Below, one piece after another: positions 6,084 to 17,104 of a stretch of DNA of 64,000 nucleotides. Source of the stretch: Gemmatimonadota bacterium (GTDB lineage Bacteria > Gemmatimonadota > Gemmatimonadetes > Gemmatimonadales > GWC2-71-9); assembly GCA_041500125.1 (NCBI GenBank), contig JBGQLP010000006.1, forward strand, positions 1,452 through 65,451, in the 5' to 3' direction. The position numbers and the translations under genes are program-made. How positions within the stretch are numbered: the first letter of the stretch is position 1; each line of letters opens with the position of its first letter. The notes under the pieces were generated by a model, which saw only the letters and a program-made list of their open reading frames with translations, did not search any database and was not told where the DNA came from.

Positions 6084-6167
6084 TCTTTCCTCCTTGGGAT
6101 CGGTGTCTACTTCCAAGGACCCGTAGAGTAGCAATGACGGTTTGAGAAGGTCGTGATCCTCGTCACG

Positions 6168-6884
6168 TCACGAAGGGTCAGCGAGGATCTGTTTCAGCTC
6201 TTGCGCCGCTGCTGGCCCGGTCGGACTCCCCTCCTCGTGCTTGAGGAAGACGTAAGCCTCGCTCCATGGCTGGCCCCGAATCCGCTTGCCCCATTGCTCC
6301 AGCGTGGAAACGTCATAGGACGACCGGCGCAGCCGGAGATAACCCCACGATGCCGTGGGCACGAGCGGCGACCCGGCTCCCTCGGCGTCATCCTCGTCAA
6401 CGGCTACGAGGGCGACGTCCCGGCCCCGGAGCAGCTGATACACCTCGTCATCGAACCAGGTAGGGTGGCGAAACTCCATCGCAGCCGGCCAGCGGCGGGG
6501 GAGCCGTCCCAGAAACTTCTGCAGCCGATTCAGGTCCTTCTTGAGTGTCGGAGGCAACTGAAAGAGGGTTGGACCCAGGCGCTCTCCCAGAGGATTCACC
6601 GCTCGAAGGAAGTAATCCAGCGAGCCGTCCTCGTCAGCCAGACGAGCGTTGTGAGTGATCCGCCTGGAGGCCTTGAGTACGAACCGGAACTGGTCCGGTA
6701 CCTGCTCTGCCCAGCTCGTCAAGACCCGCTCGTTCGGAATCCGATAGAACGAGTTGTTGACTTCCACGGTGGGGAACCGGGCGGCGTAGAAACGAAGCAT
6801 CTCCTCCGCCGGAAACTTCTCTGGGTAGAAGCTTCCTTTCCATTCTTTGTACGACCAGCCGCTGGTGCCGACGAGGATTCTCAG
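6168..6884 (-). CDS. DUF72-domain protein (probable CTG start)
   Basis: The conserved N-terminus RILVGTSGWSYKEWKGSFYP lies upstream of the track ATG and is preceded by an in-frame stop; also TVEVNNSFYRIP, KASRRITH, LFQLPP, EFRHPTW and YLRLR. Confidence 0.9.
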   Translation of the reverse strand: MRILVGTSGWSYKEWKGSFYPEKFPAEEMLRFYAARFPTVEVNNSFYRIPNERVLTSWAEQVPDQFRFVLKASRRITHNARLADEDGSLDYFLRAVNPLGERLGPTLFQLPPTLKKDLNRLQKFLGRLPRRWPAAMEFRHPTWFDDEVYQLLRGRDVALVAVDEDDAEGAGSPLVPTASWGYLRLRRSSYDVSTLEQWGKRIRGQPWSEAYVFLKHEEGSPTGPAAAQELKQILADPS

Positions 6885-7714
6885 ACTTCCCTACTCAACT
6901 GCTGATAGGACCTGAGATGGCGAAGGGCCGCCGACCGTCGGCCCATCTGCTCGTAGAGCCGAGCCAGGTTGAAATGCGCGTCGGCAAACTCGGGGTCGTC
7001 TCGGAGAACCCGGCGGTAGGCCTCGATGGCAGCGCCCCACTCACCCAGCTCCTCGAGCGCGGTGCCCAGATTGAAGGCCGCGGTGGGATCCATCCTGCCG
7101 GCCTCCAGCGAGCGGCGATAGTGATCGGCGGCCTCTGCGGTTCGTCCGGCCAGCTGAAGCAAGCGGCCCAGATTGACGTGGGCTTCGGTGAGTTCGGGCT
7201 CAAGAGCCAACGCCTTCGCGTAAGCGCTGCAGGCCTCCTCCGGAGCAGCGGCCTCGAGGTCGACGCCGAGATCGAACCATTCGGAGGCGGTCAACGCCGC
7301 AGTGGCCTGGCGAGCCGACCGGACAATCCTGCGCGCCACGGGACCGGCGCGCCGGGTGAGCTCGCGGACGGGGAAGTCGATCTGGAGCTGTCCGGATTCA
7401 GGGTTCCACGCTGTCCCCTCATCTCGCACCATCACTCGATGCCCCTCGGCAGTGATCCGGAGCTCACTGAGTGAGTGGCCTATCGGCAACAGTCGGGCGA
7501 GCCCCTGGAGTGCACTCCGGATCCGGCGGGGCGGTACCCGGGCCTGTGCCAGCTCGCGCGCAGTACGGAGGAGAACGAGATCCTGGAAGGAGAAGCGGTA
7601 GCCGTTGTGGGGCCCGCGGTCCGGGGTGAGGAATCCGGCCCGTGCCTGGGAGCGGACCTGGGGCTCGGACAGACCCAGCAGTCTGGCGACGTCGCGGGTC
7701 GAGTACGACTTCAT
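6881..7714 (-). CDS. MerR-type HTH plus tetratricopeptide-repeat protein
   Basis: YSTRDVARLLGLSEPQVR...YRFSFQDLVLLR; C-terminal TPRs (EAHVNLGRLL, TAAFNLGTALEELG, DAHFNLARLYE). Confidence 0.85.
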   Translation of the reverse strand: MKSYSTRDVARLLGLSEPQVRSQARAGFLTPDRGPHNGYRFSFQDLVLLRTARELAQARVPPRRIRSALQGLARLLPIGHSLSELRITAEGHRVMVRDEGTAWNPESGQLQIDFPVRELTRRAGPVARRIVRSARQATAALTASEWFDLGVDLEAAAPEEACSAYAKALALEPELTEAHVNLGRLLQLAGRTAEAADHYRRSLEAGRMDPTAAFNLGTALEELGEWGAAIEAYRRVLRDDPEFADAHFNLARLYEQMGRRSAALRHLRSYQQLSREV

Positions 7715-7756: not shown

Positions 7757-8626
7757 CTACCCTCGTCCGCCGGCCTTCCGTTTCTTGGGGGCGGCGTCGG
7801 CTTCGTCCGCCTTGGCTCCGACCCGCTTGGCCGGCTTCTTCTCTTCAGTGCTGGTGCCCCGCTTGGCCAGGCTCGCTTTGAGCGCGTCCATCAGGTCGAT
7901 GATCTTGGTTTCCGTTGGAGCGGCTTCGGATGTGATCTCCTGGCCTTCCACTTTGTTCTGGATGGCTTCGAGCACCCGGTCCCGAACCGTGTCGTGGTAG
8001 TTCTCCGGCCGGAACTCGTCGGTCGCGGTTTGCTCGATCAGCTGCCGTGCCAGGGCCAGCTCGGCCTCCTTGACCGGCGTCTCCGGATGAGGCACCTCCG
8101 CCGCCGGCCGCAGCTCGGCAGCGTAGTGCAGCTGCTCCATGACCAGCACCCCGTCCAGCGGGCGCACCAAGACCAGATGCTGTTTGCCTCGGGCAGAGTA
8201 CTGGCCCAGCGCGGCACGGCCGGTGTCCTTCAACGCCTCGCCCAGTAACCGGTAGGCCCGATCGCCCCCCTTGTCGGGGCCGAGGTAATACACTTTCTCC
8301 AGATAGATCCGGTCGACCGCCGCGAGCGGCACGAATTCCACGATATCGATCGAGTTGGTGGCCTTCTCGTCGAGGGCCTTGATCTCTTCCGGCGTGAACA
8401 GCACGAACTGGCCTTTGGCGAATTCGTATCCCTTGGCAATGTCGTCCTTTTCGACCACCCCGCCTTCTTTGGGGCAGATGTATTGCTGCTTCAGCCGGGT
8501 GCCGCAGGCCTTATGCACCATGTTGAAACTGACCGTGGCGGACGATTCGCTGGCGGAGTAGAGAGACACCGGGACTGAGACCAGCCCGAACGAGATGGTT
8601 GCGGTTCCAATTGGACGTGGCGGCAT
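7757..8626 (-). CDS. ku: NHEJ DNA end-binding protein Ku
   Basis: TISFGLVSVPVSLYSA, KGYEFAKGQFV, IDIVEFVP, IYLEKVYYLGP, KIIDLMDALKASL and a basic tail. Confidence 0.96.
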   Translation of the reverse strand: MPPRPIGTATISFGLVSVPVSLYSASESSATVSFNMVHKACGTRLKQQYICPKEGGVVEKDDIAKGYEFAKGQFVLFTPEEIKALDEKATNSIDIVEFVPLAAVDRIYLEKVYYLGPDKGGDRAYRLLGEALKDTGRAALGQYSARGKQHLVLVRPLDGVLVMEQLHYAAELRPAAEVPHPETPVKEAELALARQLIEQTATDEFRPENYHDTVRDRVLEAIQNKVEGQEITSEAAPTETKIIDLMDALKASLAKRGTSTEEKKPAKRVGAKADEADAAPKKRKAGGRG

Positions 8627-8843
8627 ATGGTCCCATATATCCCGCAAATTGGAAGCCCGCAAGGACGGAGCCGTCCTCTGAGCACGGAACCATTTGCATG
8701 CCATTTGGTTGCTGGTTTGAGCCGGGACGGACCTGTCGCGCCGGCGCCTCACGCATCGCGCGGCTGGTCTTTCATTTCGTATAGTTTCATCGGGAGACCG
8801 ACGTCCTCTTTTCTCCGGCCGGATTCAGCGGCACTTTCCAGTC

Positions 8844-11414
8844 ATGCCTCCCCACAAGCCGGATCCTCTCGCCGAGTACCGGACGAAGCGCGCGCTCGAG
8901 CGCACCCCCGAGCCTGCAGGCGCTGTGGCCAACGAGAGCGCGGCGGCCGGCGGGCTGTTTGTGGTACACAAGCACGCGGCCCGGCGGCTCCATTTCGATC
9001 TCCGGCTGGAAATGGACGGCGTGCTCCGTTCCTGGGCGGTACCCAAAGGGCCTTCGTACGACACTGCGGATAAGCGCCTCGCGGTCCAGGTGGAGGATCA
9101 TCCCTTGGAGTACGGCGACTTCGAGGGCCTGATTCCGGAGGGGAACTACGGTGCCGGCGCCGTGATCGTATGGGATCGGGGCCGTTGGGTGCCGCTGGAA
9201 GATCCGGTCGAGGGACTTGCCAAGGGCAAGCTTCTGTTCGAGCTCCACGGGCTCAAGCTTCATGGTCGGTGGACTCTGGTAAAGCTCAAGAAAAGCGAGA
9301 AGGAATGGCTGTTCATCAAGGAGCGCGACGCCTACGCCACCTCCTCCGGCGCCATGCCGCCGGAGGAATCGGTGCTGTCCGGCCTGACGGTGGAGGATCT
9401 GAAAGCCGGCCGGACTCCGGTCGAGGGCATCCGGACCGAGCTGGCCAGCCTGGGTGCACCGAGGAAGGAAGTGAAGCCGGACACCGTGCAGCTCATGCTG
9501 GCCGAGCCGAGAGACCGTGCCTTCTCCGGGGCGGGGTGGCTATTCGAGCTCAAGCTCGATGGGTACCGGGTCTTGGCAGCGCGGGACGGCGCTCCCCGTC
9601 TCCTTTCTCGCAACGGCAATGACTTGTCCGCCACCTTCCCGGAGATAATCCGAGCGATCCGGGCGCTGCCGCTGGAGCGGTTGCTCCTCGATGGTGAGGT
9701 GGTGGCGCTCGACGAAAGTGGACGGCCCAGCTTCCAGCGGCTTCAGCAGCGGGGCCAGCTCCGCCGCCCGCTCGATATTCGCCACGCGGCGGTACAATAT
9801 CCGGTGACCTTCTTTGCCTTCGACCTTCTCGCCTTCGAGGATTTCGACCTGCGCCATCTCCCCCTTTCCACTCGGAAGGCGTTGCTCAAGCGGCTGCTTC
9901 CTTCGGCGGGGCTGATCCGCTATCTCGATCACTTCGAACAGGACGGGGAGGTGCTCTACGAGCAGATCCAGAAGCTCGGCTTGGAGGGGATCGTGGCCAA
10001 ACGGGCCGATTCGCCTTATCGGGCTGGCCGGTCAGCGGTCTGGCTCAAGATCCGCACCCGGCAGACGGATGATTTCGTGGTGGTTGGGTTCAGCGCCCCC
10101 AAGGGCAGTCGAAGCGGCTTCGGGGCGTTGTATCTGGGACAGTACGTGGACGGGGCGCTGACTTACACCGGCCGGGCCGGGAGCGGCTTCAGCGATGGCC
10201 AACTGACCCAGGTCCGGGCAATGCTCGAAGATTTGCGCCGATCCGATGCACCGTGCGCTGGACCCCTTCCCAAGGACAAGGAGACCAGTTGGGTAGAGCC
10301 GAGCCTCGTGTGCGAAGTGGAATACACCGAGTGGACTGAGGAGGGGTTGCTCCGCCAGCCGGTATTTCTCCGGTTTCGCGAGGACAAGAGACCGGAGGAG
10401 TGCGTGGGGGAATTGGCGCGGAGGGTAAGCGGGGAGGCGGGGAAACAGGGAAGCGCGAAAGCCAGCGAGTCGTCAGAGCAGTCGGACGATGGAGTCAAAG
10501 CACCTGGGCCGAAGCCCCGGGCCATTCCCCAGTCGATCGCTTATACCAATCTTCAGAAAGTATTCTGGCCCGACGATGGCTACACCAAGGGCGACCTAAT
10601 CGAATACTACCGGACCATTGCGCCTTGGATCCTCCCTTACCTAGCCGATCGTCCCGTGGTGCTCACTCGCTACCCCGACGGGATCGCTGGAAAGTCGTTC
10701 TTCCAGAAGGACGCACCCGGCTTCGTTCCTGACTGGATCCGCACCGAGCGGATGTGGAGCGAACAGGCCGAACGGGAGATCGATTACTTCGTGTGCGACG
10801 ACGAGGCCTCGCTGCTCTACCTAATCAATATGGGTACCATCCCGCTTCATGTCTGGGCCAGTCGCACCTCGAGCCTGGACCATCCCGATTGGTGCGTGCT
10901 CGATATCGATCCCAAGGAGGCGCCGTTCAGCGACGTGGTCCGGGTCGCCCAGGCCGCCCACCAGCTCTGCGAAGAGATCGGGCTTCCCAACATGGTGAAG
11001 AGCAGCGGCTCGTCCGGGCTTCATGTTCTGATCCCGCTCGGCGGCCAATGCCGCTATGCGGAGGCTCGCAGCCTGGGGGAGCTGCTGGCCCGCGTGATTT
11101 CCACTGAGCTGCCCGACCTCTCGACGCTGACCCGGCAGGTGTCTCGCCGTGGCGGCAAGGTGTATATCGACTATCTCCAAATAGGGGCAGGGCGCCTCAT
11201 CGTTGCTCCCTTCAGCGTGCGACCGCTCCCCGGCGCACCGGTCTCCACCCCGCTCCGGTGGAGCGAGGTGAATGAGAAACTCGACATTCGGAGCTTCACC
11301 ATCCGCAACATGGCGGCCCGCATGCAGAAGCTGAAACGAGATCCGCTCCGGGACGTGCTGAAGCTGAGCCCCGACCTGGGCGGAGCCTTGGAGCGTTTGA
11401 GCGCAAGGCTATGA
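8844..11414 (+). CDS. ligD: DNA ligase D (phosphoesterase-ligase-polymerase)
   Basis: PE domain HAARRLHFDLRLE/SWAVPKG/EDHPLEY; ligase KLDGYR, EGIVAKR, WLKIR; polymerase LDIDP, SGSSGLHV, APFSVRP. Confidence 0.97.
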   Translation: MPPHKPDPLAEYRTKRALERTPEPAGAVANESAAAGGLFVVHKHAARRLHFDLRLEMDGVLRSWAVPKGPSYDTADKRLAVQVEDHPLEYGDFEGLIPEGNYGAGAVIVWDRGRWVPLEDPVEGLAKGKLLFELHGLKLHGRWTLVKLKKSEKEWLFIKERDAYATSSGAMPPEESVLSGLTVEDLKAGRTPVEGIRTELASLGAPRKEVKPDTVQLMLAEPRDRAFSGAGWLFELKLDGYRVLAARDGAPRLLSRNGNDLSATFPEIIRAIRALPLERLLLDGEVVALDESGRPSFQRLQQRGQLRRPLDIRHAAVQYPVTFFAFDLLAFEDFDLRHLPLSTRKALLKRLLPSAGLIRYLDHFEQDGEVLYEQIQKLGLEGIVAKRADSPYRAGRSAVWLKIRTRQTDDFVVVGFSAPKGSRSGFGALYLGQYVDGALTYTGRAGSGFSDGQLTQVRAMLEDLRRSDAPCAGPLPKDKETSWVEPSLVCEVEYTEWTEEGLLRQPVFLRFREDKRPEECVGELARRVSGEAGKQGSAKASESSEQSDDGVKAPGPKPRAIPQSIAYTNLQKVFWPDDGYTKGDLIEYYRTIAPWILPYLADRPVVLTRYPDGIAGKSFFQKDAPGFVPDWIRTERMWSEQAEREIDYFVCDDEASLLYLINMGTIPLHVWASRTSSLDHPDWCVLDIDPKEAPFSDVVRVAQAAHQLCEEIGLPNMVKSSGSSGLHVLIPLGGQCRYAEARSLGELLARVISTELPDLSTLTRQVSRRGGKVYIDYLQIGAGRLIVAPFSVRPLPGAPVSTPLRWSEVNEKLDIRSFTIRNMAARMQKLKRDPLRDVLKLSPDLGGALERLSARL
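10421..10452 (+). repeat. 4 x 8-nt G-rich degenerate tandem repeat inside the ligD interdomain linker
   Basis: GAGGGTAA GCGGGGAG GCGGGGAA ACAGGGAA; four runs of at least G3 with 4-5 nt loops. Confidence 0.6.
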
Positions 11415-12106
11415 CTAGCGCCACCGATCTTCAGCTGCATATGAGTGACGGCATCGGGCAAGTGTCAGCCTTGCTGCTTCTGCCTCCCGACTCGTGGCTG
11501 CTCTACATCCTGGCACATGGAGCCGGTGCCGGGATGCGCCACCGATTCCTGGAGTCGGCCTCGGCGGCGCTGGCGGAACGGGGCATTGCCACTCTTCGCT
11601 ACCAGTTTCCCTATATGGAGGCAGGCAGACGCCACCCGGATCCGCCCCACGTCTCGCAGGCCACAGTCCGCACGGCGGCTGAGAAGACTGCTGAAGTGGC
11701 CCCAGGCTTGCCCCTGGTCGCCGGCGGCAAGTCCTTCGGTGGACGCATGACCTCGGCGGCGGCGGCGGCCAGCCCATTGCCCGGGGTCAGAGGGTTGGTC
11801 TTCCTGGGATTCCCGCTGCACCCCCCGGGACAGCCGGGCACCAGCCGAGCCGACCACCTCGATCGAGTGGATATCCCGATGCTCTTTCTCCAGGGTACTC
11901 GTGACGAGTTCGCCCGAGTCGATCTCATCACGGATGTGTGTGAAGGATTGGAGCCCAACGCCACTTTGCACCTGGTGGACGACGGAGACCATTCCTTCGG
12001 CGTGCCCAAGCGCTCGGGCCGCACGCCGGGGGAGGTGCTCACCGAGCTTACCGACACGATAGAGCAGTGGTCCCGCGCCCTGGTGGCCCGGCCGGTTCGG
12101 GCATGA
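11411..12106 (+). CDS. Alpha/beta hydrolase (dienelactone-hydrolase-like)
   Basis: LAHGAGAGM, GGKSFGGR nucleophile elbow, LGFPLHPPG, QGTRD and GDHSF; ATGA overlap with ligD. Confidence 0.9.
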   Translation: MTSATDLQLHMSDGIGQVSALLLLPPDSWLLYILAHGAGAGMRHRFLESASAALAERGIATLRYQFPYMEAGRRHPDPPHVSQATVRTAAEKTAEVAPGLPLVAGGKSFGGRMTSAAAAASPLPGVRGLVFLGFPLHPPGQPGTSRADHLDRVDIPMLFLQGTRDEFARVDLITDVCEGLEPNATLHLVDDGDHSFGVPKRSGRTPGEVLTELTDTIEQWSRALVARPVRA

Positions 12107-15033
12107 GCTTCGAGCTCACCCCGCAACAGCTCAGGGCCATCGAAGCGCCGCTCGGCCCGGTTCTGGTCATCGCCGGACCGGGTGCCGGCAAGACCCATTG
12201 TCTCATCTGTCGGATCCAACACCTGATCGATCGGCACGACATTGCTCCCCGGCGCATTCTGGCGGTCACCTTCACCAACAAGGCCGCGGAGGAGATCGCC
12301 ACCCGGTTGCACGAGGCCCGCGGCCCAGCCGCGGTGGAGGTCACGCGGGGGACGCTTCACGCCATCTGCCTCGCAGTCTTGCGCGATTACGCCGAGCGCT
12401 GCGGACTTCGACCTGGCTTCGGGGTCGCGGACGAGGATTACCAACGGGCGGTGCTCAAGCGCCTTCGTATCCCGGAGAGGCGACGAACCCAGGTTCTGGG
12501 GCACTTCGCTCTGCACCGGTTGCAGGGCCGTCCCCTGGGCGAGCGCGGGAGCGAGCTCTTTGCCCGATACCAGGAACGGCTGCGGGCCCGGAACCTGGCC
12601 GACTTCGACGATCTCGTCGCGCTGACGGAACGGTTGATTCGCACCGACCCGGCGGCAGCGGCGGAGCTCCGGTCCCGCTGGGATTACATCCTGGTCGATG
12701 AGTTCCAGGACTTGAGTCCGGTCCAGTACGGTATCGTCCGCCGGCTGGCGGAGGGGCACCGGAATCTCTTCGGCGTGGGAGATGATGAGCAGTCCATTTT
12801 CTCCTGGGCCGGCTCGGATCCGCAGATCATCCACAAATTCCAGGACGACTTCGGACTGGCCGAGCCCATCGTGCTCGATCGGAACTGCCGGTGTTCGATC
12901 CAGATCTTTGAGACCGCAAAGCGGCTGATCGCCCGAAACCCCAGGCTGTTCGAGAAGCGCATCGATGCTACCCGGGAGTCGGCATTTGACGTCACCGTGC
13001 ATGCTTTCACGAGTGAGGAAGATGAGGCCGATTGGCTCATCGCAGACCTCATGGCCGATCGGACCTCCTCAGGGTTCGATTGGGGAGATTGCGCCATTCT
13101 GTACCGATCCCACCGAGTGGGGCGGAAACTCGAGGAGCGGCTGGTCTGCGCCGGGATTCCTTGCCGGCTGGCTCAGGGGCACTCGCTGGGGGATGACAAG
13201 ATCGTTGGCTGGGTGATCGCGTCGCTCCAAGTGATTCGCGATCCCAGCGATGCCGTCTTGGTGGAAGCGTTGGCGGAGCGGGCCCTGCCCCCGGTGTTGC
13301 GACAGGAAGTGCGGAAGGTCTCCTCCCGGGACAAGGACCTGCTCGCCAACCTCCGTGCCTTTGCCGCTGTCCGCCAGCGGGGTGATGCCGAAGGCAGGCG
13401 GGTGTGGCGACTCATCTATCACCTCGAAAACCTGAGAGGAATGGCGCGCTCGCACCAATCGCTCTCGGGCCTGGTGGACGAGCTTCTCGCCCGGCCCATT
13501 GGCGCCGGACGCAATCCGCTGGAGGAGCACCACGATGATTTGAGCGAGCCCTCTGCCTATCCCGGAGCGGCCGCGCTGGCCCGACGCCTGGTTCAGGCTG
13601 TGGCCTCGGGCGCTCGGGTGTGGATCGAGCCACGGAGTGGCGCCGAAATTCCGCTCGTGGCAATGCTCCGCGGTGCCGGAGTATCCAACGCCCAGCGACT
13701 CGGCGGGGATGACTCGCCTGCCGCGGACGATGTGGTGCTGCGGGCAGGGGATGGCCCCAATGGTGGGCGGCCGATCCGCGTTTTCAAGGCGCTGCAACTG
13801 ACGCAGACCGGGAACTTGAAGAACGACTTCGACGATTTCGTCGCCTTCGATCTGGAGACCAGCGATTTCGACAGCAGCTCATGCGAGATCGTGGAGATCG
13901 CCGCGGTACGGGTGCGAGATAAGGTCGTGGTGGCTGGTTTTCAGAGCCTGGTTGCGTGCACACGCCCGATTTCGGCGGCCGCCACCGCCGTGCACGGCTA
14001 CACCGACGACGATGTGGCCGCGGCGCCCTCAATGTCAGAGGTGTGGGCCCGCTTCCGCGAGTTTGTCGGGACTGACATCCTGGTGGCCCATAACGGCCAG
14101 GAGTTCGATGTGCCGGTCCTCCGGCGAGTGTGCGCCGGCTTTGAGGGGTTGGAGGAGCTGGTCTTTTACGACACGCTTCCGCTGGCCCGGTCACTGGTTG
14201 ATGGAAGCGTGAAGCTCGAGACGCTGGCTCAGAAGTTCAATGTGGAAGTCGGCAGGGCCCATCACGCTTATGATGACGCCTTCATGCTTGCGGGAGTGGT
14301 GCCCGCGCTGAGCGAGCTGAGGATCCGCAGGGCGCGCAAGATTGCGCTGGTGCATCTGCTCGACTATCTCGGCCTGGCCTTGGCTCTGGACCAGACCGCG
14401 ACGCCGGAAAACGAGGAAGTGCTGCTTCGGGAGATCACTCGGCCTTACACCCTGGGAAGGTACAGCGATTGTCTCGAGCACTATGCCGCAGAGGCAGCAG
14501 GGGGAGACCCCGATCTCGAAGAGGTAATCGCCCGCTTGGGCGGACGGCCGCTCATGGATCGTTTGCGAGCTGAACGCTCCGTGGCGGAGCGCTATCCGGC
14601 GGCGGTAGAACGGCTCCGGATGCTGATCCAGGCGAGCGGGGGAGAGACAGTGGCGCAGCAGATCGACGATATGCTATGCCGGGTGGCTCTTTCCACCAGC
14701 GCGGGTGTAGAGACCGATCCCCACCGGGTCAACTTGCTCACGCTCCACTCCACCAAGGGATTGGAGTTCTCCCGGGTGTACATCGCAGGGGTCGAAAACC
14801 AGCAGTTGCCTGGGTGGAAGGCCCTTGAGGAAGATGTTGAGGATGAGATACAAGAGGCGAGGCGTCTGCTCTACGTGGGGATGACCCGGGCCAGGGACAG
14901 ACTGGTGCTCACGAGGGCCGAGCGCCGGTTCGGCTTCCCCTCTGGGGGGAGCCTGTTCCTGACCGAGATCGGCCTCGTGGCTCGGGTTGCTGGCACACCT
15001 CCTGCACAGGAGGCCCAGGTCGTCTCCAAGTAG
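12103..15033 (+). CDS. UvrD/Rep-family helicase with an internal DEDDh 3'-5' exonuclease domain
   Basis: Helicase motifs AGPGAGKT, TFTNKAA, VDEFQD, GDDEQSIFSW, TLHSTKGLEF, RRLLYVGMTRAR; exonuclease motifs FDLETS, AHNGQEFD, HHAYDDA lie between the N- and C-terminal helicase motifs. Confidence 0.92.
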   Translation: MSFELTPQQLRAIEAPLGPVLVIAGPGAGKTHCLICRIQHLIDRHDIAPRRILAVTFTNKAAEEIATRLHEARGPAAVEVTRGTLHAICLAVLRDYAERCGLRPGFGVADEDYQRAVLKRLRIPERRRTQVLGHFALHRLQGRPLGERGSELFARYQERLRARNLADFDDLVALTERLIRTDPAAAAELRSRWDYILVDEFQDLSPVQYGIVRRLAEGHRNLFGVGDDEQSIFSWAGSDPQIIHKFQDDFGLAEPIVLDRNCRCSIQIFETAKRLIARNPRLFEKRIDATRESAFDVTVHAFTSEEDEADWLIADLMADRTSSGFDWGDCAILYRSHRVGRKLEERLVCAGIPCRLAQGHSLGDDKIVGWVIASLQVIRDPSDAVLVEALAERALPPVLRQEVRKVSSRDKDLLANLRAFAAVRQRGDAEGRRVWRLIYHLENLRGMARSHQSLSGLVDELLARPIGAGRNPLEEHHDDLSEPSAYPGAAALARRLVQAVASGARVWIEPRSGAEIPLVAMLRGAGVSNAQRLGGDDSPAADDVVLRAGDGPNGGRPIRVFKALQLTQTGNLKNDFDDFVAFDLETSDFDSSSCEIVEIAAVRVRDKVVVAGFQSLVACTRPISAAATAVHGYTDDDVAAAPSMSEVWARFREFVGTDILVAHNGQEFDVPVLRRVCAGFEGLEELVFYDTLPLARSLVDGSVKLETLAQKFNVEVGRAHHAYDDAFMLAGVVPALSELRIRRARKIALVHLLDYLGLALALDQTATPENEEVLLREITRPYTLGRYSDCLEHYAAEAAGGDPDLEEVIARLGGRPLMDRLRAERSVAERYPAAVERLRMLIQASGGETVAQQIDDMLCRVALSTSAGVETDPHRVNLLTLHSTKGLEFSRVYIAGVENQQLPGWKALEEDVEDEIQEARRLLYVGMTRARDRLVLTRAERRFGFPSGGSLFLTEIGLVARVAGTPPAQEAQVVSK

Positions 15034-15040
15034 GTGACCA

Positions 15041-15652
15041 ATGAAGCTCGTCGTGTGCGCCCTGTCACTTCTCGCCGGCCTCCCGAGCCTGATGTCTGCG
15101 CAGATCAGCTTCGCTTTTCCGCGACTCCAAGGCCAGACGGTTCGCGCCACTCTCGGCCCAATCGCCGTGGTTGCCACCTTGAGTGGACACCGCGTGAGCG
15201 TTGGCCCTGCCCGCGCTCCTCGCCGCACAGCGACTGGGCGGGCCCGCCTCGGCTCCGCCGCGAGTGCCAGGGCGGCCCGGGTGCTCGCCACCGCTAATCG
15301 CTACGTAGGGACCGGCTATCGCTATGGCGGTGGCAGCCCGGTTGCCGGGTTCGATTGCTCGGGGTTTGTGCAGTACGTCTTCGAGCGGAATGGCGTCCAC
15401 CTACCTCGCACCTCCCGACTCCAGGCCTCGGCGGGCAGCCCTGGGCCGCTCGACATCGCGTCTCTAGCGCCCGGGGACCTGCTCCTGTTTGCGAGCCGGG
15501 GTACCCAGATCAACCACGTGGCTATCTACGTCGGCGGCAATCGCATCCTCCATTCGACGGCCGGCGCCGGTGGAGTGGTCTACGACGACCTGTCCACCCC
15601 TCGCGGGAAGTGGTACCTGGCCCGGCACGTCGTCTCTCGGCGTGTCCTTTGA
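15041..15652 (+). CDS. NlpC/P60 (C40) cell-wall peptidase
   Basis: Signal peptide; YRYGG...GFDCSGFVQYVF, LPRTSRLQ, GDLLLF, HVAIYVG and LHS. Confidence 0.92.
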   Translation: MKLVVCALSLLAGLPSLMSAQISFAFPRLQGQTVRATLGPIAVVATLSGHRVSVGPARAPRRTATGRARLGSAASARAARVLATANRYVGTGYRYGGGSPVAGFDCSGFVQYVFERNGVHLPRTSRLQASAGSPGPLDIASLAPGDLLLFASRGTQINHVAIYVGGNRILHSTAGAGGVVYDDLSTPRGKWYLARHVVSRRVL

Positions 15653-15740: not shown

Positions 15741-16301
15741 ATGTCCCGCATCGCGCCCCTCGACACCGAAGCCGCGCCCGCAGATGCGCGAGCCGCAGCC
15801 GAGACTCACGTCCGGACTCACGCCCGGATGACCAACATGAAGCGGACGTTGCTCCACTCACTTCCGGCGTTCAACGCATTGATGGAATGGTATCCACTCC
15901 GGGACACCGTGCAGCCGTTCCTGGGCGAGCGGCTTACCACCCTCTTCTCTCACGCCATCTCGGCGGAGACCGACTGTCTGATCTGCTCCACCTTCTTCCG
16001 CCGGATGCTGATTCAGACCGGCGAAAACCCCGAGCGCCTCAGATTGGATGATCGGGAGGCCGCGGTCCTGGAGTTCGGGCGCGCGCTCGCGGTGTCGCCC
16101 TTCAAGGTGTCCGACGAGGTGTACCAAAAGCTCGAGCGACACTTCGACCCGACCCAAATCGTGGCGCTGACTGCGTTCGGTGCCCTGATGGTGGCCACCA
16201 ACGTGGTCAACAACGCGCTCGAGGTGGACTTGGACGAGTACCTCCAGCCGTACCGGAAGGGAGTACGGGAGAGCGCGACTGCCGGAGGCAACCGGACCTG
16301 A
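15741..16301 (+). CDS. AhpD/carboxymuconolactone-decarboxylase-like protein
   Basis: CLIC (CxxC); SDEVYQKLERHFDPTQIVALTAFGALMVATNVVNNAL tail. Confidence 0.75.
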   Translation: MSRIAPLDTEAAPADARAAAETHVRTHARMTNMKRTLLHSLPAFNALMEWYPLRDTVQPFLGERLTTLFSHAISAETDCLICSTFFRRMLIQTGENPERLRLDDREAAVLEFGRALAVSPFKVSDEVYQKLERHFDPTQIVALTAFGALMVATNVVNNALEVDLDEYLQPYRKGVRESATAGGNRT

Positions 16302-17104
16302 TGGCTGAGTTCGCCGGCAAGGTTGCCTTCATCACGGGTGCGGCCCACGGGCAGGGCAGGGCGACCGCACTAGCGTTCGCGCGCGAGGGGGCGCGGATAG
16401 TGGGGTTCGATCTGGCCCGCCCGCTGAGCTACCCCGGGTACGAGATGGGTTCCCCGGATGAGCTGGAGTCGCTCGCGGCCGCTTGCCGCGCGCTGGGGAC
16501 GGAGTGCCTCACCTTCACCGGCGATGTGCGTGACGACGCGGCGGTCACCCGGGCGGTGGACGCCTCGGTCTCCCGGTTCGGACGGATCGACATCCTGTTC
16601 AATAACGCCGGCATCTGCGCCTACGGCCTGGCTCACGAGCTCACCGAGGAAGCCTGGGATGCGATGCTGGACATCAATCTGAAGGGAGCCTGGCTGGTCG
16701 CCCGGCGGGTGATTCCGGTCATGATGAGGCAGCGATCGGGCGTCATCATCAACAACTCCTCGATTGCGGGGCTTCGCGGCATGGGGCGCCTCAGCCACTA
16801 CGCCGCGTCCAAGTGGGGGCTCACCGGACTGACCAAGTCATGGGCCATCGAGCTGGCGCCCTACGGCATCCGGGTCAACTCCGTCCATCCCACTGGGGTG
16901 AACACACCGATGAACGACGGGCTCGCCGCACTGGAAGGTCTTACTCCGCGAGAAGTCGCCGAGCGCTCGGCCGGGAACCTGCTGCCAGTGCCCTGGATTG
17001 AGCCGGAGGATGTGGCCAATGCCGTGCTATACCTTGCCTCTGACCGGGCCCGCTTTGTAACGGGGGCGCCGCTGGTGATCGATGCCGGGCTACTCAGCCG
17101 GTGA
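16301..17104 (+). CDS. SDR oxidoreductase resembling the mycofactocin-coupled SDR subfamily
   Basis: TGAAHGQG, extra loop DLARPLSYPGYEMGSPDEL, NNAG, YAASK and VNSVHPTGVNTPM. Confidence 0.88.
   Translation: MAEFAGKVAFITGAAHGQGRATALAFAREGARIVGFDLARPLSYPGYEMGSPDELESLAAACRALGTECLTFTGDVRDDAAVTRAVDASVSRFGRIDILFNNAGICAYGLAHELTEEAWDAMLDINLKGAWLVARRVIPVMMRQRSGVIINNSSIAGLRGMGRLSHYAASKWGLTGLTKSWAIELAPYGIRVNSVHPTGVNTPMNDGLAALEGLTPREVAERSAGNLLPVPWIEPEDVANAVLYLASDRARFVTGAPLVIDAGLLSR

Follow-up and report, generated by a model that had tools for sequence, protein, structure and literature searches.

Descriptions of non-homologous end joining (NHEJ) in bacteria usually present it as a pathway of two proteins, Ku and LigD, and we know of no enzyme identified in it that trims non-ligatable DNA 3' ends. 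The 64-kb window analysed here (the whole 64,000-nucleotide stretch, positions 1,452 to 65,451 of contig JBGQLP010000006.1), from a bacterium of soil or sediment that belongs to the order Gemmatimonadales, raises the question of whether such a helper is encoded next to ligD itself. Two divergent gene strings occupy 6.1-15.7 kb of the window, one on the minus strand running from ku through a MerR/TPR gene to a DUF72 gene, and one on the plus strand running from ligD through a PF20408 hydrolase gene and a 976-amino-acid (aa) helicase gene to an NlpC/P60 gene. The helicase is of UvrD/PcrA type (superfamily 1A, SF1A) and carries a nested DEDDh exonuclease (hereafter HelExo). The locus yields two concrete candidates for end-joining helpers, namely this helicase with its nested proofreading-type exonuclease and the serine hydrolase that trails ligD. 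With moderate confidence, we read HelExo as an as yet uncharacterised accessory of end joining with the task of trimming 3' ends, functionally analogous to the eukaryotic WRN-Ku pair. We infer its role in end joining, its polarity, its substrates and any contact with Ku.

We searched 151 Gemmatimonadota genomes with the HelExo insert, LigD and the hydrolase, and scored LigD matches at E ≤ 1e-20, some of which are single-domain paralogues. HelExo was present in 54 of the 151 genomes, all of which also encoded LigD (54/54), whereas not one of the 50 LigD-less genomes carried it; LigD was found in 47 of the 97 genomes lacking HelExo. At the scale of the locus, no more than 10 kb separates approximately 18 of the 54 HelExo genes from ligD or ku, where chance would give approximately 0.3, and several more lie 10-45 kb away. 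The ligD-hydrolase-HelExo order was found in four of the ten other genomes of the genus. In a fifth (G013, L005:5786-11351), HelExo directly follows ligD and the hydrolase gene is nowhere in the assembly, suggesting that the hydrolase is dispensable for the pairing. Twelve more genomes, which represent other genera and also another family, keep HelExo within 10 kb of ku/ligD in rearranged form (e.g., HelExo-hydrolase-DUF72-ku/ligD or ligD/ku-MerR-TPR/HelExo), with at least four gene orders overall. An earlier reading of the sequence alone (hereafter the sequence-only reading) had tied the helicase to ligD in this genome, and the synteny survey extends that linkage well beyond it. Here, we show that the genomic association of HelExo with ku/ligD is conserved. 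The limitation of HelExo to LigD-encoding genomes, together with this linkage, supports a role in end joining. The same reading had gone further, to a dedicated NHEJ end-resection enzyme; the connection to end joining is supported, while we would keep "dedicated" and "end-resection" as conjecture.

When 40 loci were compared all against all, the only recurrent neighbours of HelExo were LigD, Ku, DUF72 and the hydrolase, each at 14-15 loci. The NlpC/P60 gene, which the sequence-only reading had listed in the same string, follows HelExo only in the 4 closest relatives among these 40 loci, and we rejected it as a member of the system. It is an example of an unrelated gene in this string, and as such lends something to the view that HelExo stands beside ligD by chance or operon hitch-hiking, or is a GajB-like anti-phage helicase, with no link to end joining. 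PADLOC did return strong GajB matches to the helicase part of HelExo. However, those matches span only the generic UvrD core, neither GajA nor another defence partner was found nearby, the hydrolase had no PADLOC match, and the linkage to ku/ligD far exceeds its chance expectation. We therefore rejected anti-phage defence on the generic core matches and the missing partner genes, and consider the view as a whole very improbable.

What kind of enzyme is HelExo? Its gene occupies 12103..15033 on the plus strand, and the ATG at 12103 agrees with the N-termini of its orthologues. Pfam recognises UvrD-helicase at aa 5-250 (222.7 bits) and UvrD_C up to aa 939 (119.9 bits), and SF1A motifs I (GxGKT), Ia, II (DExx), III, IV, V and VI are all present: AGPGAGKT (24-31), TFTNKAA (56-62), VDEFQD (198-203), VGDDEQSI (225-232), N261/R263, TLHSTKGLEFS (880-890) and YVGMTRA (924-930). 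Across 23 aligned orthologues, which are 43-76% identical, 36 of the 54 motif positions are invariant, including Walker A, the DE and QD of motif II, motif III, most of motif V, and motif VI, and the remainder are 90% conserved or conservatively substituted. HelExo would be an ATP-driven UvrD-type motor, for which family knowledge predicts 3'-to-5' movement on single-stranded DNA. Its scores fall below every NCBIfam equivalog cutoff (pcrA, 346.9 vs 911; rep, 320.9 vs 951; uvrD, 281 vs 1144), indicating that the architecture is not covered by a curated family. The full-length AlphaFold (AF2) model has a predicted local distance difference test score (pLDDT) of 81 and a predicted template-modelling score (pTM) of 0.55, and the PDB folds closest to it are those of PcrA, UvrD, Rep and UvrD1, with RecB, AddA and AdnAB at lower ranks. 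The chain extends 46 aa past motif VI, and the Pfam scan found no C-terminal PD-(D/E)xK nuclease domain. HelExo is not the housekeeping UvrD, because a canonical 762-aa UvrD with a Tudor domain at aa 709-755 is encoded elsewhere in the genome (C2:118866-121151); these two are the only UvrD-type SF1A helicases in the genome, which is estimated to be 99% complete.

The departure from a canonical helicase lies in the middle of the chain. At the sequence level, PDB entries for UvrD, PcrA, Rep and M. tuberculosis UvrD1 match from aa 5 to approximately 390-414 and again from approximately 847. The canonical 1A/1B/2A/2B layout, in which 2B normally measures approximately 170 aa, is not kept; a 470-aa module (aa ~400-870; 13300..14712, plus strand), delimited by the gap in the helicase matches and by the model, sits at the 2B position. 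Within it lies a DnaQ/PolC-type DEDDh 3'-5' exonuclease domain (aa 580-735; 13840..14307, plus strand), matched by RNase_T at aa 580-732 (87.1 bits vs a cutoff of 24) and, in PDB sequence matches, by PolC, ExoX and DEDDh exonucleases. The DEDDh pattern is complete (Exo I, D583/E585; Exo II, D669; Exo III, H720/D725), and all five residues are invariant across the 23 orthologues, so that, judged by its residues, the exonuclease is intact, as the sequence-only reading had held. That reading had also placed the domain between the helicase motifs; the nesting stands, with the refinement that the exonuclease sits inside the insert at the 2B position.

Residues 400-870 modelled alone form a single compact unit (pLDDT 87.5, pTM 0.83) comprising, in order, a helical bundle, a small alpha/beta unit, the DEDDh exonuclease and a second helical bundle. 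The exonuclease matches the Pol III epsilon subunit (2gui, 2ido) with a template-modelling score (TM-score) of 0.80-0.82 and a root-mean-square deviation of 2.5-2.9; the top match of the insert is the S. aureus DinG exonuclease (PDB 8zef, 9ii8), and PolC, ExoX and TREX1/2 were also recovered. In this PDB fold search, matches were confined to the ~170-residue exonuclease, and the helical bundles and the alpha/beta unit remained unmatched. Approximately 300 insert residues flank the exonuclease (aa ~400-577 and 746-870; window 13300-13830 and 14340-14712) and are confidently folded with it. The 2B domain is an autoinhibitory regulatory switch in UvrD-family motors (PMC13238157, PMC13646824). According to the models, the 2B domain of HelExo is rebuilt around a DnaQ-type 3'-5' exonuclease with predicted catalytic activity, and a nuclease inside this regulatory domain is of interest for helicase mechanics. 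Our searches of the literature and of curated family libraries brought up no account of a UvrD-DEDDh fusion.

How might such an enzyme serve end joining? At a Ku-bound break, the HelExo motor would engage the 3' tail or the frayed end and use the energy of ATP to scan or separate a few base pairs. The exonuclease would then strip mismatched, damaged or non-complementary 3' nucleotides, which would be beyond the clearing carried out by the LigD phosphoesterase, and the LigD polymerase and ligase would fill and seal. The serine hydrolase, for its part, probably removes a block joined to the end through an ester or protein linkage, or else acts by modifying a partner. Because relatives keep these genes clustered with ku, the hydrolase and HelExo are probably helpers, as yet unstudied, of a pathway usually credited to two proteins.

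Several observations weigh against this assignment. The co-occurrence of HelExo and LigD speaks for it (Fisher p = 4e-13), but the test takes no account of shared ancestry. Approximately 60% of Gemmatimonadota HelExo genes lie away from ku/ligD, and in the 40-locus comparison the unlinked loci had no recurrent neighbours in common. A search of 1.8 billion representative proteins returned many clusters of the same architecture (31-38% identity, 990-1150 aa), one of them from Latescibacterota. The exonuclease keeps its relative position in these clusters. Five such distant genes had no ku or ligD within 10 kb and adjoin gatCAB, cell-division and other housekeeping genes, suggesting that the fusion is older than its link to end joining and can exist without it. 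How motor and exonuclease are placed relative to each other in the full-length model is uncertain (pTM 0.55). The Pfam scan did not match PF21196, the C-terminal PcrA/UvrD Tudor domain, in HelExo, which thus differs from UvrD1 in lacking the element through which UvrD1 binds Ku. Finally, recB and addA profiles matched nothing in this genome beyond its two UvrD-type helicases, leaving it without a RecB/AddA-type enzyme, so that a resection machine of the RecBCD/AddAB type appears to be missing and a broader role for HelExo at breaks or forks is possible.

Much of this would fit a general damage or replication-stress helicase-exonuclease, working on stalled forks, flaps or R-loops like the exonuclease-bearing DinG of Bacillota, whose position in an end-joining locus would reflect shared stationary-phase or desiccation regulation and not a joining step. 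The preponderance of unlinked orthologues, the housekeeping neighbours of the distant family members, the want of RecB/AddA-type enzymes and the S. aureus DinG exonuclease as top fold match of the insert all favour such a role. So does the tree, in which all the fusions group in a single clade separate from canonical UvrD (support 100) and predating the Gemmatimonadota link, with the Gemmatimonadota HelExo nested in it as a clade of their own (support 100). Against it, HelExo is confined to LigD-encoding genomes, its recurrent neighbours are end-joining genes only, and the linkage survives several rearrangements. Linked and unlinked HelExo genes are interleaved in the tree, with at least seven changes of state, indicating that the linkage is either old or repeatedly regained. 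Taken together, we regard the general-stress role as possible yet doubtful.

A further option is that HelExo resects ends for homologous recombination or microhomology-mediated joining, as a competitor of or an alternative to Ku/LigD where RecBCD and AddAB are absent. The failure to find a RecB/AddA homologue in a nearly complete genome (estimated at 99%) is in line with this, as is the combination of helicase and nuclease, which follows the logic of RecB, AddA and AdnAB, the lower-ranked fold matches. However, family knowledge indicates that a DEDDh exonuclease degrades the very 3' strand that recombination needs, the PD-(D/E)xK nuclease domain is not found in HelExo, and HelExo is absent from all LigD-less genomes, which would need resection too. 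We consider this option quite unlikely to account for the locus, although slightly less so than a chance or anti-phage origin.

A further observation concerns HelExo genes outside ku/ligD loci. Two genomes of genus g3 with unlinked HelExo carry a stand-alone ATP-dependent-ligase-like gene 2-5 kb away (L119:8229-9059 and L128:2685-3734), with 27-28% identity to the LigD ligase domain. A scan of genome contigs with an alignment of the exonuclease region of distant family members matched on helicase motif V and returned 80 ordinary UvrD/PcrA loci, none covering the exonuclease, and so says nothing about other phyla.

The serine hydrolase encoded between ligD and HelExo (Abhydrolase_11, PF20408; 11411..12106, plus strand; 176.1 bits vs a cutoff of 27) has the nucleophile motif GKSFG, and an Asp and a His occupy the positions customary for an alpha/beta-hydrolase triad, which was assigned by eye. 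It was present in 78 of the 151 genomes, 77 of which encode LigD. Most carriers, including families without HelExo, have it directly downstream of ligD, and elsewhere it stands beside HelExo. The hydrolase thus accompanies ligD more widely than HelExo does, follows it across a bacterial class and, in this locus, bridges ligD and HelExo. Its link to end joining is also found in Alphaproteobacteria: on pSymB of Sinorhizobium meliloti Rm41 (L131, 2439-7576), ligD and ku are followed, after a gap of approximately 1.2 kb, by a homologue with 37% identity. No end-joining genes were found near the homologues in Caballeronia and Rhizobium leguminosarum, and our literature searches returned no paper that ties PF20408 or DUF72 to LigD.

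Are the core genes of the pathway themselves complete? LigD (8844..11414, plus strand) is of the phosphoesterase (PE)-ligase-polymerase type, with Pfam matches to LigD_N, DNA_ligase_A_M/C and LigD_Prim-Pol, and scores 547 bits against TIGR02776 (cutoff 373). All three of its domains are present, namely PE (aa 42-147; nt 8967-9284), ATP-dependent ligase (aa 226-515; nt 9519-10388) and Prim-Pol (aa 581-834; nt 10584-11345), and the single-domain models TIGR02777, TIGR02779 and TIGR02778 each score above cutoff. The ligase lysine motif (KxDG) reads KLDG at K237, and the sequence also has DID687. Ku (7757..8626, minus strand) reaches 169.6 bits with Pfam Ku and 286.7 with TIGR02772 (cutoff 150), and ends in a Lys-rich C-terminal tail. 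Its open reading frame (ORF) was first called as 7757-8752, up to a GTG at 8752; the start is most likely the Met at 8626, from which homologues align. The divergent intergenic region between ku and ligD (8627..8843) presumably holds the promoters. A promoter scan, weak and uninformative for this phylum, found no sigma-70-like site there, and alignment of the region with five relatives revealed no conserved motif or shared operator.

Directly downstream of ku, a MerR-type helix-turn-helix/TPR protein is encoded (6881..7714, minus strand; Pfam MerR_1 and many TPR families), and a MerR/TPR gene also follows ku in four related loci (L003, L006, L010 and L124). The last gene of the ku string encodes a DUF72 protein (6168..6800, minus strand; Pfam E 1e-55) resembling TM1631 (PDB 1vpq), which we take to be a predicted endonuclease IV-like enzyme. 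DUF72 adjoins ku in approximately 15 related loci and is, on that adjacency, a further candidate end-joining accessory. An ORF on the opposite strand (6153-6905, plus) was rejected as antisense, as Pfam is blank there and DUF72 lies on the minus strand.

On the plus strand, direct reading confirmed the junctions given by the sequence-only reading, and its ORF coordinates and the divergence of ku from ligD also agree with the ORF list, Pfam and NCBIfam. The ligD and hydrolase genes overlap by ATGA at 11411-11414, as do the hydrolase and HelExo genes at 12103-12106, and 7 nt separate the HelExo stop (TAG, 15031-15033) from the NlpC/P60 ATG at 15041. The overlaps suggest that ligD, the hydrolase gene and HelExo are co-transcribed. 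From ligD through the whole NlpC/P60 gene, a scan that is weak and uninformative for this phylum showed no terminator, and a search of sequence runs matched the locus in DNA metagenome runs only, none of them RNA. The NlpC/P60 peptidase (15041..15652, plus strand; Pfam NLPC_P60), an incidental neighbour, begins with a hydrophobic, signal-peptide-like segment, MKLVVCALSLLAG. Beyond it, window positions 15741-17104 hold a 186-aa ORF with weak YciW/peroxidase-related (AhpD-like) matches and then an SDR oxidoreductase gene; the two overlap in the ATGA manner at 16301 and are kept downstream of NlpC/P60 in the closest relatives only.

Considered as a whole, the region would be an enlarged NHEJ locus, in which ku-MerR/TPR-DUF72 diverges from ligD-PF20408-HelExo. 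What is new in our reading of HelExo as an end-joining accessory is that a helicase-nuclease fusion, in an architecture without a curated family, would fill this role, which we hold to be somewhat probable. A bolder proposal, which we offer only tentatively, is that end joining in Gemmatimonadales is a machine of at least five parts, comprising Ku, LigD, DUF72 as an end cleaner, the PF20408 hydrolase and HelExo. HelExo would then be a convergent bacterial counterpart of WRN, with its exonuclease housed in the rotating, autoinhibitory 2B domain so that, on capturing a 3' end, HelExo would trim it and gate the motor at once, and Ku would recruit HelExo through a non-Tudor interface.

How does HelExo compare with known systems? 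The sequence-only reading had invoked UvrD1 as a precedent. Ku does stimulate mycobacterial UvrD1, binding it via the C-terminal Tudor domain (bioRxiv 10.1101/2023.09.29.560180), and UvrD1 shares with HelExo a UvrD/PcrA-type motor core with all motifs; the association with Ku/LigD is biochemical for UvrD1 (bioRxiv 10.1101/2023.09.29.560180) and genomic only for HelExo. The precedent does not transfer directly, as HelExo lacks the Ku-binding Tudor domain, and it further differs from UvrD1 in that its 2B is replaced by the 470-aa exonuclease-bearing module and its genome has a separate canonical UvrD. The uvrD1 gene encodes a nucleotide-excision-repair helicase and lies outside a ku/ligD operon, and the C-terminal PcrA/UvrD Tudor domain binds RNA polymerase.

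The functional likeness is to human WRN, whose exonuclease is stimulated by Ku, in this case Ku70/80 (PMC13377182). Like HelExo, WRN unites a helicase of 3'-5' type and a DEDD-superfamily 3'-5' exonuclease in one polypeptide, and it is tied to Ku-dependent end joining (PMC13377182, PMC5150655). Unlike WRN, which has a superfamily 2 (SF2) RecQ helicase, an N-terminal exonuclease and Ku-binding motifs, HelExo has an SF1A UvrD-type core with its DEDDh domain nested in 2B. The WRN exonuclease is of the DEDDy type. We regard HelExo as an analogue of WRN and not a homologue, the resemblance being functional only.

DinG of S. aureus and B. subtilis is likewise a bacterial helicase fused to a DnaQ-type exonuclease (PMC12345164). 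It differs from HelExo in being an SF2 helicase of 5'-3' polarity with an N-terminal exonuclease that is not nested. We know of no link between DinG and end joining. In RecB, AddA and AdnAB, too, the SF1A motor shares its polypeptide with a nuclease, and these enzymes act at double-strand ends; they differ in being multi-subunit recombination machines with a C-terminal PD-(D/E)xK nuclease, a domain that HelExo does not have. Lastly, the locus shares with canonical two-component NHEJ a Ku and a three-domain LigD, here divergently encoded and both above curated cutoffs. Unlike in the two-component arrangement, ligD is chained by overlaps to two further enzyme genes, pointing to translational coupling, and ku is joined by the MerR/TPR and DUF72 genes, with these extra genes recurring alongside ku/ligD across the order.

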